Positions 1 to 18,000 of a stretch of 64,000 nucleotides of DNA are shown here, piece after piece. Location of the stretch: contig JBBTED010000002.1 in the NCBI GenBank assembly GCA_038042445.1, positions 1 to 64,000 of the forward strand. Direction: 5' to 3'. This DNA comes from Candidatus Firestoneibacteriota bacterium. Its GTDB lineage: Bacteria; Oederibacteriota; D2-FULL-39-29; JBBTED01. The first letter of the stretch is position 1. Each line of letters starts with the position of its first letter. Made by a program: the position numbers.

Positions 1-3000
1 ACTTGTGAAGAAATACTTAATTGCACAGAAAATGCATCACTCTTTGACAAATCAGGCAATCCTTTTCCCTCTTTAATTGTATTTCCAAAAATATCATCCA
101 TCCCCTGTCCTGAACGTTCTACCAAACCTGCTTTCTCAAAGATTTCAGCAATACATCTATTTCTCCAATAAGTTTTGTGTAAAATGTTTTCCTGTGTAAT
201 ACCTACAGGTAATCCACCAGGACTTTCTATAACAAAATTTTCTGAAGATGCTTTGATAAAGATGGACTGATTGTTTATTGTGTAATTTCTATGTGCAACC
301 GCATTCAATACAGCCTCACGGATAGATTTTTCGTTAAACGCATATACCTCACGTTGAAACAATCCATCTTGAAATGGATAACGTAAATTACGAGCATCAA
401 TCGTTTCCCAAATTGAATCATAAATTTTAAAAAAAGGTTCTCGCCAATTTCTCCTGAAATCGTAGGAAACTTTTGCCGACTCTTGTCTCCATTCAAAAAT
501 TATTTCACTTCCCGGCAATATCTTATCTATTTTTTCCTTTTTGCCAAATAAAATTAAACTTGCATAATTTAACCCTTCATCTGTTAACAACCCTATAGAA
601 CGAAGCATCTTATCGTTTTCAAATGTAAGATAATCGTCTCTTCTTGTTTTCTCCGACCACTTTGTTTTAAAATTTGAAAGAGCATCTTCATCCAAATCGG
701 ACAACTTTAATCCATAAACAATTTTTGCAGAAAAATCTTGCTCAGTTTCACTAAGTATTGTTTTCATTGTTGCCAAATCCATCTCAACCAAAGATTCTCC
801 TGCTCTCATCGGATATTTGTAAGCACCTGTAGATTTCACAATTTGGCCAAACTCTCGGCTTGGGATATGAAAAATCAGCACACGACTTTGAGAATATATG
901 ATTTCCTCAACATCAATCCTTATTTTGAGTTTAGTTAGTAATTCATGAGAAAGTTTATGGTCGCTTCCTTGAAATGCTTTTGTTCCTACGATAAACCCTT
1001 TGCTATTAACTCCAAGAATAAGTTTTCCGCCACCTTCATTAGAGATAGCAGCACAATAATCCGGCAAATCTTCTCTACTATCAAATTTATTTTTTGCCTC
1101 TTTAAATTCAAGATTTATACCCTCAGGCCTCTTTAACCAATTTTCTAATTGTTCTATCGATGTCATATTCAATTGTTTTTCCGTTCCACACAAGTTCAAC
1201 TCCCCACTTTTCTGGATTCCCGCTTACTACACGCGAGAATAACAGGTAATCCCCTAAAGATTTAGCTACAGTTACATATTACCACAATACAATATCACAT
1301 ATTCACTAGATTTCAATACTAAAATAACGTAAGGAATCAGTATTTGGACATTTGTCATTGCGAGCGAATAAAATAAGCGAAGCAATCTCATTTATTTTTA
1401 AAGAGATTGCTTCGTCACTACTGCTCCTCGCAATAACACCCCCGCCCGTAACTAACCCATTACAAAATAATCTCTAACATTATTGCATATTTGTTATGTT
1501 TGGGTTATAATACCCAAACTATGGTCTGATGAAAAAAATATCAACCATAAGGAAAAAAACTATGTTTTTATCAATTTCACTTTATTTTATATTTTTGTTT
1601 TTAATATGGTGGGCATTTTGTGGATATTTATATGTTATTTATCTGCTATCCTTGTTTAAAGGTGAAGATAAAAATGCCTCAGCATCAATGGTTAAATCTT
1701 ATCCTTTTATTTCAATACTTGTGCCTTGTTATAATGAAGAAAATTTAGTTGAACAAAAGGTTGACAATTTAAAACAGATAAATTATCCGAAAGATAAATT
1801 TGAAGTGTATTTTTTAGACGGGCTGTCTTCAGATACAACTTATGATAAATTGACAAAACTAATAAAAGATTCCTCAAATATGAAAGTTCTGCAAACAAAT
1901 TGTAAAGGCAAAATAAATCAGATAAATTTTATATTGCCCACACTTAAATCTGACATTGTCTTAAATACTGATATGGATGCTATTATGGAACCTGATACAG
2001 TGCAAGAACTTATAAAAGAATTTGAAAAAGATACTGATATTTATGTGGTAGGTGCTTATGTTGCACCACAAAACTGCATAAATATGGAAAAACATTATTG
2101 GGAAACACAAAACTTGCAAAGAGTACTTGAAAGTAAAATTTATTCCGCTTCTGCTGTAATGGCTCCTTGTTATGCTTTCAAAAGAGAACTGCTTAGCAAA
2201 TTTCCTGAAGATTGTGTAGCAGACGATATTTATATTTCATATTTGGCTAATTCACTTCAAAAGAAAACCAAATACTGCGATACTACAATTGTTTATGAAA
2301 CCAGATGCCCAAACACTATTGAAACATTGATACAGCATAAATTCAGAAAAGCAAATGCGTATATAATGGAACTATTAAGATTTTCTTATTTATTACCCAA
2401 AATGTCCAATAAATGGAAAATTATCTATACAACAAAAATGCTGCAGATTTTATTTATTCCATGGATATTAGTATTTTTTGCATTAAGTTCTATATCCTTT
2501 TTATTAAGTAACCCGGGAACCGTAAAAATAGCTATATTTGCTTTTATGTTTTTGTTAATATCATTTGTATTAGCTCATTATTTTGTTGAAAAAGGCAGAA
2601 AACAATTAGAAAAAAGTAAATACGAAAAAAGATCGTCTATTGCTGTATTTTTACTAACAACACTTGTATTGTTTTTTGCTGGGATTACATATCCATTTTT
2701 CTCACAAACCAGTAATTACAAAAAAATATGAATAAATTATTGTCCGTCTTAATACCTGTGTATAATGAAGTCCATACTATAACTAAAATAATTGATAGAG
2801 TCCATAAAGTGCCGTTAGACAAAGAAATTATTGTTATAGATGATGGATCTACTGATGGCACCTCTGAAGCACTAAAATCAATAAAAGAAAGTAATGTTAA
2901 AATTTATTTTCATAAAAAAAATTCTGGAAAAGGTTCTGCAATAAAAACAGGACTACAACATATAAATGGAGATATTATTATAATTCAGGATGCAGATTTA

Positions 3001-15000: not shown

Positions 15001-18000
15001 TCAACTAAAAGTGAAGATAATGATATAAATTTCACAGAAAAACTTATGGACTTATTAAACATACCATCAGTTTTTGTAGGACCGTATGTATCAATAAATC
15101 CTGTCCGAATACTTGAAAAATCCAACAAAATACAATTTGCTATTAAAGGTGAATTTGAATATCCTGTTTTAGAGCTTTTAGAAAAAAAACCTATATCCCA
15201 GATTAAAAATTTAGCATACAAACAAGATTTGCAAATTATTCAAAATGAATTAAGACCCCTACTCTCCAGAAAAGAATTAGACAAAATACCTTTTCTAACA
15301 GCTTTTTTTAAAAAACATCTGGATTTTAAATTTTACAAAACTCCATCTGAATATTATCCATTTATAGACTTAATGACAGGAAGAGGATGTATCTGGGGGC
15401 TTTGCACTTTCTGTTTATGGGTCCATTCATTCATAACAGGTAAAACATATAACACACGATCAATAGAAAATGTCCTTGAAGAATTTAACTTCGTTGTTCA
15501 AGAATTACCTGAAGTTCGTTCAATTATGATTCAAGATGACACTCTATCTGAAGAACGGGCAACAGAATTATCAGAAGGCCTGTTAAAATCAAATATAAAA
15601 ATATCATGGTCATGTTATGCAAGAGCAAATATGAATTATGAAACATTAAAACTTATGAAAAAAGCAGGGTGCAGAAACTTACATGTAGGATATGAATCTA
15701 TAAGTGACAATGTATTAAAAAACATAAAAAAAGGCATTACTGTTGAAAAAATGGAAAGATTTACAGCAGATGCCAAAAAAGCAGGCTTAAGAATACATGC
15801 AGATTTTATGCTTGGACTTCCTGGAGAAACAAAAGAAAGCACACTAAAATTAATTAACTGGGCAAAAAAAATAAATCCACATACAGCACAATTTCAATTG
15901 ATAAATCCTTACGAAATAACACCACTTTACCAGTATCTAAAAGATAATAATTATTTCAACAAAAATGGAGAACCAAATTATCCTGATTTATCAACTGAAG
16001 AAATAAGAAAATTAGGAAAACTTGCATACAGAAAATTCTATTTAAGCTTTAACCATCTCAAAAAAGTCATCTCCTCTCCCTATGAACACTTTTTTGGAAG
16101 ATTAGATACAATTTCAAGAGCCATACCAGCAATATTCTGGAAAAAATGGTGATTATAGGTTATCCAACAATTTTACATTTCACTCTGTAGTCGCAGGCTT
16201 TAGCTTGCGGTTTTTTTGCAATTTTTCCGCAGGCTAAAGCCTGCGATTACCAAACACACTCGTCATGATTTTCTTTAAAAGCGCAAATGATGATATTTTT
16301 CTTGATTGCTGTATAACAATCCTTTTCTCAAACATTTTATTTGAATTTAAAAAAGCCTCTTTTTTGGCATTGAATACAATTCTGCCCTTGCCTCTTAATG
16401 TATAAATAATAAATGTCCAGATAACAAATATTAGATGTAATGGATATACAATTAAAAATAATGCTAAAGGTATATCTTTTATAAGCACATATTCCTGATT
16501 TCTTTGCACTAAATAAATAAATAAATCGCTACCTATTTTAAAAGTAGTGCCAAGCCTATGGTAAACTATTGCATCTGGAACATACAAACATTTGTATCCT
16601 CTCAGTTGCAATCTCAAGGACAAATCTATATCTTCATAATACCCAAAAAAATCCTCATCAAAAAACCCCACCTCTTCCAATATTTGTTTTCTATATATAG
16701 AAGCACATCCACTTGCAGATAAAACTTCTTCTAATTTATTATAATTATCTTTATTTTTATTATGCCCGCGTTTTTTGCCATAGCCAAAAATTGAAAAATT
16801 ATCTCCTGCAGTATCAATTATGTTTTTTCTATTGTAAAATAAGATTTTTGATGTGCAAGATGCAACACCAGGATATTTTTGAATCGTTTTATGTAAATTT
16901 TCAAGCCAGTATTTGTCAGCAACTGCATCATTATTAAGCAAAGCAATAAATTCACCTTGAGCAACTTTTAATGCTTCATTATTCGCCTTTGCAAACCCGA
17001 TTTTTTCAGTAAATTTGATTAGCTTTATTTCAGGAAATTTTTCAGATATATATTCTGACGACAAATCAGTAGACCCATTATCCACAACTATTATTTCAAC
17101 ATTCTCATTTAAACTCTGATTGAGTAATGAATTTAAACATTCCTCTATAATCTCTCTGCCATTTGCATTAACCACTACTACACTTATCATTATAAAAGTT
17201 TATCATAGGCAAAATCGGATGTAAAGGATTGACTTCAGAAATTCCCCAAAATGGTATTTTTGCAGTTTTGTCATGCTGAATTTATTTCAGCATCTAATAA
17301 AGTCAAGGGGTTTTAAGACCCTGAAACAAGTTCAGGGTGACAAAAAGTCTATTTGGGGAATTTCTGGATTGACTTTTTCAATATTCATCTGCTATAATTT
17401 AGCATCTTAAAAATCATACAATCAATTAGCTTTTAAATAACATATTCAAATTGTAAAATTGGAGGAAATGATGCGTAAAAATTTATATGCAACAGCAGTT
17501 TTTATAATTTCATTCGCCATAATGGTGAATGGTTGTAGCAGAAATAATACAGGAACACAAACAAAACCTGCAATTCAGATAAAGGGTTCTGACACAATGG
17601 TGAATTTAGGACAGGCATGGGCGGAAGAATTCACAAAATTACATCCTGAAGTAAATATAGCTGTTACTGGAGGAGGCTCTGGAACAGGAATTGCGGGTTT
17701 GCTAAATGGAACCTGTGACATTGCGGAATCATCAAGAGATGTTGAAGATAAAGAAATTACACTTGGAAAAGAAAAAGGAATAAATTTTGCTAAGCATACT
17801 GTTGGACTTGATGGATTAGCTGTAGTTGTTCATCCATTAAATCCAGTCACAAATCTAACTTTAGATGAATTACGCGCCATATTTATAGGAGAAATAACAA
17901 ACTGGAAAAATCTAGGTGGCAAAGATTCTAAAATTGTTGTTCTCTCAAGAGAAGTTAATTCTGGAACTCATGTTTTCTTTAAAGAACATGTTTTAAGAAA

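Follow-up and report, generated by a model that had tools for sequence, protein, structure and literature searches.

Radical SAM enzymes with B12-binding domains beside envelope-glycan genes in an uncultured groundwater bacterium

Introduction

A few antibiotic and lipid enzymes are so far known to C-methylate, deoxygenate or ring-contract sugars by radical chemistry. GenD1/GenK and AprD4/AprD3 are precedents for radical sugar chemistry (PMC5461906), and AprD4 carries a B12-type domain without binding cobalamin (PMC12931638). MoeK5 of moenomycin biosynthesis is described as a sugar C-methylase and methylation as the most frequent reaction of the class in PMC9204698, section 5 of which gives G-x-S/T, GG and GE as the cobalamin-binding motifs and states that sequence motifs fail to separate methylases from non-methylases. 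On the lipid side, PMC13459092 presents calditol synthase Cds of Sulfolobus acidocaldarius as a radical SAM enzyme with a proposed contraction of lipid-bound glucose to a cyclopentane polyol, and traces the reactions of HpnJ and calditol synthase to knock-outs, not purified enzymes. The substrate of Cds is an archaeal tetraether lipid, and we draw the likeness from the description of Cds only.

The window, i.e. the whole stretch of 64,000 nucleotides analysed here (contig JBBTED010000002.1, positions 1 to 64,000, assembly GCA_038042445.1, Candidatus Firestoneibacteriota), originates from an uncultured groundwater bacterium and contains a locus at 1562-16152 (genes are named below by their first position). 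The locus resembles the bacteriohopanetetrol cyclitol ether pathway (HpnJ/HpnI plus an LPG-synthase-TM protein) in the clade and motif loss of its enzyme 14761, whose family adjoins GT2 genes, and sometimes an LPG-synthase-TM gene, as in the hpnJ-hpnI neighbourhood. It differs by another GT2 family and several more radical enzymes, by a genome in which we detected neither squalene-hopene cyclase nor HpnI, and by a 14761 score below the TIGR03471 cut-off. With GenD1 and GenK (gentamicin) and MoeK5, which belong to antibiotic pathways and were compared by description and not by sequence, the enzymes share the domain architecture, and the GG motif is kept in 23 of 29 of them here; those pathways are not known to include membrane proteins of the GT-C type as partners. 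An SDR is present as in the AprD4/AprD3 system (apramycin C3 deoxygenation), of which AprD4 is the top, albeit unspecific, fold match, but the 14761 family does not consistently have an SDR beside it. Both the window and contig C18 hold a short GT2 and a probable GT-C-fold protein as in three-component polyprenyl-phosphate glycosylation (GtrB/ArnC-type synthase, flippase, GT-C), whereas the flippase is absent from the window locus, and systems of this type are not known to have an array of radical SAM enzymes.

Results

All 12 genes of the locus are intact and lie on one strand. Seven encode radical SAM enzymes, of which five have a B12 domain and two lack it, SPASM being present in one of these two. 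The other five encode two GT2 glycosyltransferases, a class I methyltransferase, an HpnA-like SDR and a membrane protein of probable GT-C fold (Table 1). The first reading frame may alternatively start at 1529; a longer start of 14761, at 14707, runs through a repeat, and the database protein has 463 residues. The best solved relative of GT2 1562 is 6YV7/6YV9, a GT2 named PcManGT (E 6e-21), and those of GT2 2728 are Dol-P-mannose synthase, ArnC and sll0501, its best NCBIfam match being AglJ (137.6 bits, below the cut-off of 325). The SDR likewise stays below the cut-off of TIGR03466 (197.7 versus 367.65 bits). The membrane protein 8179 has about eight hydrophobic segments and no Pfam or NCBIfam match; compared with Atlas models it gave TM values of 0.70-0.78 with one row (PF13231) reaching our bar, and its Atlas model (pLDDT 0.72) has a TM of 0.73 to the PMT_2 row reaching the bar. 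The best methylase candidate of the locus is 10814; its best NCBIfam match, Sden_1168, scores 271 bits against a cut-off of 575, and its predicted model ends in three C-terminal helices. For 12330, the closest match among solved structures is BtrN (E 1e-16). The convergent GT2 16234 may belong to the pathway. Contigs from four runs of three studies cover the window in parts, and none of the pieces listed spans the window or bridges the repeat at 17266-17337.

Table 1 Features of the locus and its downstream border.
Position	Strand	Feature	Basis
1562..2731	+	Membrane GT2 glycosyltransferase, ~4 predicted TM segments (hydropathy)	PF00535
2728..3414	+	Short soluble GT2, polyprenyl-phosphate glycosyltransferase type	Solved relatives
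3453..4859	+	B12-type radical SAM enzyme, GG motif present, GE motif altered	PF02310 and PF04055
4852..5847	+	HpnA-like NAD(P)-dependent epimerase/reductase (SDR)	PF01370
5853..6656	+	Class I SAM methyltransferase	PF08241
6653..8128	+	B12-type radical SAM enzyme, intact cobalamin motifs	Pfam, motif inspection
8179..9534	+	Multi-pass membrane protein, probable GT-C (PMT/ArnT-like) fold	Atlas models, hydropathy
9732..10817	+	Radical SAM enzyme without B12 domain, SPASM/twitch-like group	PF04055 only
10814..12322	+	B12-type radical SAM enzyme, intact cobalamin motifs	Pfam, motif inspection
12330..13325	+	Radical SAM/SPASM enzyme, BtrN-like	PF04055 and PF13186
13398..14735	+	B12-type radical SAM enzyme, degenerate cobalamin motifs	PF02310, 25.3 bits (cut-off 32.1)
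14761..16152	+	HpnJ-clade radical SAM enzyme, 463 aa	TIGR03471, 337 bits (cut-off 577.6)
16234..17190	-	GT2 glycosyltransferase, convergent, at locus end	PF00535

A profile search of the genome, which is about 90% complete with 2.2% contamination, returned 29 PF02310 and 71 PF04055 matches, and a local profile yielded 29 full-length B12-type radical SAM genes, five of them in the window, plus four pieces at contig ends. These enzymes combine an N-terminal Rossmann B12 domain with a radical SAM domain, an assignment based on Pfam, the local profile, predicted folds and the three-cysteine motif, which is intact, as is the reading frame, in all 29. The survey had counted 26 such genes. The excess over class relatives was confirmed, with 29 B12-domain matches versus 3-8 in 12 class relatives (E<=1e-3) and 26 versus 1-8 in 98 phylum relatives (E<=1e-8), counts that for all genomes alike take in non-radical corrinoid proteins. 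PMT_2 genes number 12 versus 2-8 in the class. A general surplus of glycan genes was rejected as the cause: since GT2 genes number only 23 versus 10-16 in the class, the excess of B12-type radical SAM genes is not a mere excess of glycan genes. The claim of an unusual scale found no support: the numbers are equalled in Omnitrophota and others, and among 50 genomes with members of one subfamily, two reach at least 26 B12-domain matches; the genome is a rich, not a unique, example. The closest relatives of its CysRS stand at 58-59%.

Enrichment beside glycan-synthesis genes, the core of the survey's finding, holds both by gene and by cluster. Under a broad definition of glycan genes, which is partly circular as its seeds were partly drawn from the same loci, 21 of the 29 genes lie at most three genes from a glycan gene, versus 17.9% of 2497 other genes, and after collapse of the 29 genes into 20 clusters the count is 15 of 20 versus 4.4 expected (p 5e-5). 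Under a strict definition (Pfam GT2/GT4 genome-wide), the corresponding figures are 11/29 versus 6.3% and 8/20 versus 1.7 expected (p ~2e-4). The enrichment hence persists when tandem genes, which had been a concern, are not counted as independent (p 2e-4), and the GT2/GT4 neighbourhood supports the proposed link with envelope glycan synthesis. Some proximity to glycan genes is also seen for other radical SAM genes (12/40). Five of the 20 clusters lack a nearby glycan gene by the broad definition, at least three of the 29 genes stand in contexts without one, and some of the genes lie in lipid or peptide-like contexts. Nucleotide-sugar enzymes, flippases and LPG-synthase-TM genes occur in other clusters. 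The frequency of particular partners had been overstated: transketolase/E1-like pairs were found in three of 20 clusters (C18, C151 and C1) and not in the window, tandem partners (radical SAM genes without B12 domain, SPASM/twitch type) in or beside six of 20, and flippases in other clusters with none in the window locus. Our literature searches returned no description of such loci, and a lead to Leptospira O-antigen loci as carriers of such genes was not confirmed in follow-up.

Both the G-x-S/T and the GG motif are missing from five of the 29 enzymes, among them 13398 and 14761. Three of the five, 14761, C72_13 and C142_13, cluster with HpnJ (SH 98) and have the loss of G-x-S and GG in common with it; FastTree gave SH 98 for the wider HpnJ clade and SH 86 for HpnJ, represented by one sequence, as sister of the 14761 family. 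The best match of HpnJ in the genome is 14761, with 36-37% identity to annotated HpnJ. Besides TIGR03471 (C72_13 294.8 bits), the cut-offs of the PhpK P-methyltransferase (at most 145.5 of 600 bits), BchE (at most 211 of 481) and, among the matches listed, AprD4 (NF033070; at most 105 of 500) stayed out of reach. Because no B12-type radical SAM enzyme passes a curated family cut-off and identity to annotated named enzymes does not exceed about 37%, function cannot be transferred. Both folded models have AprD4 as their closest match (Z 32.0 and 34.2, 17-18% identity), and fold comparison therefore cannot discriminate methylases from other enzymes. Judged from motifs and clade, the 29 enzymes are probably not all B12 methylases, and C-methylation or branching as their single chemistry is not supported; by analogy, some of them probably do C-methylate sugar carbons. 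A hopanoid pathway was rejected: the ~90% complete genome has no PF13243 match to squalene-hopene cyclase, HpnI has no match in it at E<=1e-8, and a cyclase-like match was found in seven of 50 carriers of the 14761 subfamily and in none of the other 43.

The term expansion does not fit the set, as the paralogues have a median identity of 26% and a maximum of 43% and the near relatives of 14761 are in other phyla. Recent duplication was rejected, with one of 333 aligned pairs at 40% or above (quick tree only), and by sequence the genes form a collection instead of a duplicated family. For four of the five window enzymes, proteins of other phyla are more similar than those of the kin sampled: 3453 is 44% identical to a Woesearchaeota protein versus 40% for the closest among 28 class proteins, 6653 has 44-45% identity to Altiarchaeota and Omnitrophota proteins and 40% to a plasmid-encoded protein of Solidesulfovibrio carbinolicus DSM 3852, whose gene adjoins those of a glycosyltransferase and an epimerase, and 14761 has relatives at 55-70% in other phyla, while the 98 phylum relatives gave no match to it at E<=1e-60. 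The gene order 9732-10814-12330-13398 is conserved in one Omnitrophota and one Vicingus genome; in loci L035 and L100, syntenic genes of 9732 reach 57% and 52% and 13398 reaches 54%, while 10814 is 59% identical to its L035 counterpart. Carriers of the 14761 subfamily are bacteria and archaea, tiny Patescibacteria and DPANN genomes among them. Under a corrected overlap rule, 14761 orthologues, from many bacterial phyla and archaea, have a GT2 gene within 300 bases in 37/79 loci and somewhere in 64/80, an SDR within 300 bases in 1/79 and within 3.5 kb in 25/79, and a detected GT-C gene in 16/80 (seed-limited). The rarity of an adjoining SDR fits a reaction without need for a reductase. The family of GT2 1562 is present in 32/80 loci, where the overlap rule dropped some true genes, and the B12-type label in this survey of 80 loci may include a few MiaB/RimO-type genes. 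For 18 class-relative loci, chosen partly for a GT2 on the same contig, glycan context was left uncounted. The minimal conserved unit is a GT2 plus an HpnJ-clade enzyme. Within the genome, seven of the 29 genes lie on contigs below 8 kb and 19 on contigs above 25 kb, two of these with housekeeping genes; the contig composition test was mixed, four contigs falling within the top 6% for composition distance, and repeats are not enriched in these loci (13.8 versus 10.4 sites per 100 kb).

The C-terminal 70 residues of the enzymes carry a net charge of +7 compared to +1 in 547 control proteins (p 2e-7) and are also more hydrophobic. In groups defined after viewing the data and with C107_2 excluded, 22 glycan-locus members have a median tail charge of +8.5 versus -5 to +2 in six others (p 4e-4); the hydrophobic moment of the tails did not differ significantly (p 0.07). 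GT-C folds are predicted for 8179 and for one of four tandem C18 proteins, and an LPG-synthase-TM gene also adjoins true hpnJ-hpnI. Both these tails and the partners (polyprenyl-phosphate-type GT2, GT-C, flippases) suggest that the substrates are lipid-linked sugars. Cobalamin uptake is present, with two cobalamin riboswitches upstream of btu-, cobA- and cobT-like genes (read by eye); a CobS match for completion of de novo synthesis was not found in the incomplete genome.

Discussion

From the observed genes, motifs, neighbourhoods and distribution we infer every substrate and reaction in the following. We consider it rather likely that most of the enzymes tailor envelope glycoconjugates, as laterally gathered modules of mixed radical chemistry that act mainly on lipid-linked sugars at the inner membrane face. 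The short GT2 2728 would load a sugar onto polyprenyl phosphate and the membrane GT2 1562 would glycosylate a lipid acceptor. Tethered to the membrane by basic hydrophobic C-terminal helices, the radical enzymes would then modify the lipid-carried sugar: 6653, 10814 and perhaps 3453, with intact motifs, would most likely C-methylate sugar carbons by analogy with GenD1, GenK and MoeK5, and 14761 would most likely perform a non-methylating rearrangement, for which contraction of a glycoside ring to a cyclopentane-type cyclitol is our tentative best guess. The BtrN-like enzyme, the SDR and the class I methyltransferase would oxidise, epimerise or reduce, and O/N-methylate, and the probable GT-C-fold protein would transfer the resulting unit to an acceptor on the outer side.

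The unlikely alternative that fares best is a membrane glycolipid or modified lipid chain, with a calditol- or cyclitol-ether-like head group or a methylated chain, as the product instead of an exported glycan; the genes for flippases and GT-C proteins would then be part of separate pathways in the same islands. The resemblance of the minimal unit to hpnI-hpnJ and the low GT-C count (16/80, seed-limited) agree with this, and the tails would suit any membrane substrate. It sits poorly with the lack of a cyclase match in the ~90%-complete genome and in 43/50 carriers, with nucleotide-sugar enzymes and flippases in other clusters, and with carriers from bacteria and archaea, whose lipids are unlike. 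Polyprenyl carriers are common to both domains.

That essentially all of the enzymes are cobalamin-dependent C-methylases which methylate or branch surface sugars appears quite improbable. The five enzymes without both motifs, three of them grouping with HpnJ, speak against it, as do the genes in lipid or peptide-like contexts and the precedent of AprD4, which has such a domain yet binds no cobalamin (PMC12931638). On its side are the GG motif in 23/29, the cobalamin riboswitches, the ThDP pairs in three clusters and methylation as the commonest reaction of the class (PMC9204698).

Secreted aminocyclitol- or nucleoside-like small molecules, the home of GenK, GenD1, AprD4 and BtrN, would account for antibiotic enzymes as the nearest characterised relatives, but with polyprenyl-type GT2, GT-C, flippases and LPG-synthase-TM proteins as partners and tiny Patescibacteria and DPANN genomes among the carriers we regard them as very improbable products. 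Equally hard to credit is that the genes are functionally unlinked passengers in hypervariable glycan islands or that the excess is mis-binned DNA, as deep divergence, scattered nearest relatives, the seven genes on short contigs and the four contigs of outlying composition might suggest, given the four-gene order conserved in Omnitrophota and Vicingus, GT2 adjacency across phyla, 19/29 genes on contigs above 25 kb, two with housekeeping genes, 2.2% contamination, and reading frames and cysteine motifs that are all intact.

Returning to tailoring of envelope glycoconjugates, we offer as a speculative and rather doubtful extension that uncultured anaerobes, bacteria and archaea alike, exchange a modular radical toolkit for remodelling sugars on lipid carriers, which joins radical C-methylation and GT-C surface display to an HpnJ-type ring contraction that is independent of hopanoids and yields ether-linked carbocyclic pseudo-sugars. 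If so, surface glycans resistant to glycosidases and acid would form a class that has gone unrecognised although it is common in the subsurface, and this genome would run several such pathways simultaneously. In a 2026 review of the class, the words 'sugar', 'glycan' and 'polysaccharide' are absent (PMC12931638). The two-gene unit of GT2 and HpnJ-clade enzyme, together with a cultured, non-pathogenic carrier, makes the proposal testable. If the loci work as inferred, the enzyme class would have a major use, hitherto unassigned, in envelope glycan synthesis, with new sugar structures and possible biomarkers and biocatalysts.

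Abundance and genomic context of B12-type radical SAM genes

Using a profile made from two-domain (B12-binding plus radical SAM) proteins, we found 29 full-length B12-type radical SAM genes and four contig-end pieces in the 2.8 Mb genome (completeness 90%, contamination 2.2%), which has 29 Pfam matches to PF02310 and 71 to PF04055. The high count of the survey's finding was upheld: 26 PF02310 matches at E<=1e-8 compare with 1-8 across 98 phylum relatives; 12 class relatives have 3-8 each. GT2 genes are in small excess only (23 versus 10-16 in class relatives), and PMT_2 reaches 12 versus 2-8. 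Contigs longer than 25 kb carry 19 of the 29 genes, among them C1, which also encodes rpsB and EF-Ts, and C2, which encodes two tRNA synthetases; 21 genes remain after removal of seven on contigs below 8 kb and one on the compositionally odd contig C163.

Pfam GT2/GT4 genes lay at most three genes away from 11 of the 29 genes, compared with 6.3% of other genes. With GT2/GT4 positions taken genome-wide by Pfam, tandem genes collapsed and 20,000 random placements as null, eight of 20 clusters were near such a gene against 1.7 expected (p about 2e-4). For a broad set that adds GT9, GT-C, flippases and nucleotide-sugar enzymes, and is partly circular as some seeds came from these loci, the figures were 21/29 genes against 17.9% and 15/20 clusters against 4.4, close to those of the survey. 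Its association with glycan loci stands. Counting against this link, broad-set genes are also found close to 12 of the 40 remaining radical SAM genes. By this set, no glycan gene was found near five clusters (C27, C47, C116, C157 and C107); the C116 enzyme is closest to TIGR03960, and C107 is a very short contig. The transketolase-like pairs described earlier occur as ThDP pairs in three clusters (C18, C151, C1), but not in the window. At C145, a nonulosonic-acid-type pathway is suggested, because NeuB, cytidylyltransferase, WbuX/HisH/HisF and carbamoyltransferase genes surround the radical SAM gene.

Features of the window locus and of other loci of the genome
Feature	Coordinates	Content
Membrane GT2		first gene of the 1562-16152 locus
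Short soluble GT2		in the locus
B12-binding + radical SAM proteins (five)	3453, 6653, 10814, 13398, 14761 (starts)	in the locus
Radical SAM proteins without B12 domain (two, Pfam)	9732; 12330 (starts)	12330 with SPASM
Membrane protein	8179 (start)	without Pfam match
HpnA-like SDR		in the locus
Class I methyltransferase		in the locus
Third GT2		opposite strand, convergent with the locus
REP-like short repeats	approx. 1355-1440, 8075-8105, 9560-9640, 10785-10812, 13338-13368, 14726-14752, 17270-17345	palindromic, at gene junctions
C27	L007:4797-8925	B12-type radical SAM gene flanked by two ICMT/PEMT-type genes; ketosynthase and histidine kinase adjoin; lipid-like context
C151 and C1	L015:2040-3354; C1:27274-28414	short ThDP subunits (beta-type 171 and 174 aa without C-terminal domain, alpha-type 205 aa) beside SPASM and B12-type radical SAM genes; C151 also with GmhA- and HldE-like genes
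C18, largest cluster	C18:1000-42000 (L003-L005)	six radical SAM genes of B12 type and three others; transketolase and E1 pairs; heptose-kinase-like, GDP-fucose-synthase-like, RfbH-like genes; DUF2079; four tandem membrane proteins, the single one tested GT-C-like
C36	L006:4930-12176	KedN5-like B12 radical SAM gene (709 aa) flanked by TMEM260-like/TPR gene and PqqD + SPASM + peptidase cassette
C145	L014:672-15593	KedN5-like B12 radical SAM gene
Cobalamin riboswitch loci (two)	L101 (C121:1136-3054); L102 (C177:247-6285)

The window locus comprises twelve intact genes, all on the same strand, with intergenic gaps of -8 to 197 bases and a G+C content of 29% versus 32% for the genome; beyond the convergent GT2 lies a phosphate transport operon. 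None of its radical enzymes reached the cut-off of a curated NCBIfam model. Public sequencing runs containing the stretch are labelled groundwater metagenome wherever a label exists. In one run of the probable source study, contigs span 1-8097, 8079-9544, 9690-12876, 13504-17266 and 17337-20000, and runs from two other studies hold near-identical pieces; contig breaks of public runs coincide with the REP-like repeats. Some of these repeats fall within the terminal parts of radical SAM ORFs and are read in frame, and their approximately 298 sites across the genome are not enriched in glycan loci.

Origin and distribution

What had been called an expansion is instead a collection, not the product of duplication: pairwise identity among the 29 enzymes has a median of 26% and a maximum of 43%. 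In the 98 phylum relatives, nothing matches the HpnJ-clade enzyme 14761 (14761..16152, +) at E<=1e-60; its best 120 database relatives share 55-70% identity with it, and 80 loci of such relatives fall in Omnitrophota, Planctomycetota, Nitrospirota, Patescibacteria, Woesearchaeota, Aenigmatarchaeota, Altiarchaeota and others. Four window enzymes share 44-68% with proteins of other phyla versus 28-37% with the closest of the 28 class proteins sampled; for the fifth, 3453, the values are 44% and 40%. The order 9732-10814-12330-13398 is kept in an Omnitrophota locus (L035); a Vicingus locus (L100) has it with insertions. From this cross-phylum identity, the low class identity and the shared order, we conclude that the window locus is a mosaic of mobile modules. 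A block shared by four class relatives of family f3 (L103-L106) combines GT2 and SPASM genes with a tandem of three B12-type radical SAM genes and has 25-39% identity to the enzymes of this genome. Look-alike loci in cultured Desulfovibrionaceae, on a Solidesulfovibrio carbinolicus and a Lawsonia plasmid (L125, L126), hold radical SAM genes of this class amid glycosyltransferase, epimerase and methyltransferase genes.

The scale, described as unusual, proved high but not unique. Among 50 genomes encoding a 14761 relative, a sample biased upwards by this selection and with counts that take in non-radical corrinoid proteins, PF02310 matches ranged from 1 to 30 (median 11), with at least 20 in five genomes and at least 26 in two. 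The top genome, an Omnitrophota, has 30 in 2.1 Mb; nine of the 50 reach 7 per Mb versus 9.3 here.

Substrates and chemistry

Among solved proteins, the short window GT2 most resembles Dol-P-mannose synthase and ArnC, and the membrane GT2 most resembles PcManGT; in predicted models, 8179 and the tested C18 membrane protein resemble GT-C transferases, and other members are flanked by flippases and LPG-synthase-TM genes. In their C-terminal 70 residues, the 29 enzymes exceed 547 controls in both basicity and hydrophobicity, a trend stronger in 22 glycan-locus members than in six others (a post hoc grouping, the six including C145_11 of the NeuB-type locus and C36_12 beside the TMEM260-like gene). 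The tails are predicted to be helical in the models of both 14761 and 10814; amphipathicity of the tails, tested itself, was not significant. Together, the GT2 and GT-C likeness, these neighbours and the tails point to substrates that are lipid-linked sugars on the inner side of the membrane; for C145 and for parts of C18, C151 and C178, nucleotide sugars are the likely substrates. Two cobalamin riboswitches were found, and CobS had no match in the 90%-complete genome. The genes downstream of the riboswitches, whose sequences were read by eye, are presumably uptake and salvage genes: one riboswitch lies upstream of what we take to be a radical SAM gene of 441 aa and one resembling CobT, and the other lies upstream of uptake-like genes.

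A single chemistry for all, C-methylation or branching as first proposed, was not supported. The cysteine motif is present in 29/29 enzymes, and, among the cobalamin-binding motifs G-x-S/T, GG and GE (PMC9204698), GG in 23/29; neither G-x-S/T nor GG is present in five enzymes (13398, 14761, C72_13, C142_13, C100_2). An annotated Paraburkholderia HpnJ shows the same loss, has 14761 as its best match in this genome (37%), and falls into one clade with 14761, C72_13 and C142_13 in a FastTree phylogeny (SH 98, one HpnJ sequence). On the basis of knock-outs, the reaction proposed for both HpnJ and calditol synthase is contraction of a sugar ring, in a glycosylated hopanoid for HpnJ and in lipid-bound glucose for calditol synthase (PMC13459092, excerpts). 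Squalene-hopene cyclase was found neither in this 90%-complete genome nor in 43 of the 50 carriers of 14761 relatives, and HpnI was not found in this genome; the substrate of 14761 is therefore something other than the hopanoid of the HpnJ pathway.

For both models, AprD4 was the top fold match, so this match has no discriminating power; AprD4 does not bind cobalamin (PMC12931638, excerpts). Of 79 loci, 37 have a GT2 within 300 bases of the 14761 orthologue, 22 have a methyltransferase there and one has an SDR (25/79 for an SDR within 3.5 kb). Since AprD4-type dehydration requires a reductase partner (PMC5461906, excerpts) and an SDR rarely adjoins these orthologues, a redox-neutral rearrangement would fit the 14761 family better. 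Where the motifs are intact, as in most of the enzymes, the likeliest reaction by analogy would be the C-methylation known from GenD1, GenK and MoeK5 (PMC9204698, PMC5461906, excerpts).

Significance

Among the papers covered, largely open-access and main texts only, none was found to describe surface-glycan loci with arrays of B12-type radical SAM genes. The accessible part of bioRxiv 10.1101/765248 reports arrays of radical SAM genes next to nitrogenase paralogues rather than glycan genes; B12 domains are present in some. The accessible parts of an Omnitrophota study (bioRxiv 10.64898/2026.06.07.730766) make no claim of such arrays in glycan loci, those of PMC12931638 lack the words 'sugar', 'glycan' and 'polysaccharide', and those of PMC2650404, PMC3493377 and PMC13331322 hold nothing further on such arrays. 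None of the enzymes reaches the cut-off of a named family; by analogy, their putative mode of action is in part like that of HpnJ and calditol synthase and in part like that of GenD1, GenK and MoeK5. The divergent radical enzymes are a true accumulation, an outlier in the phylum, that is linked to envelope glycosylation, and the genome is one rich example of a widespread arrangement that is apparently new to the literature.
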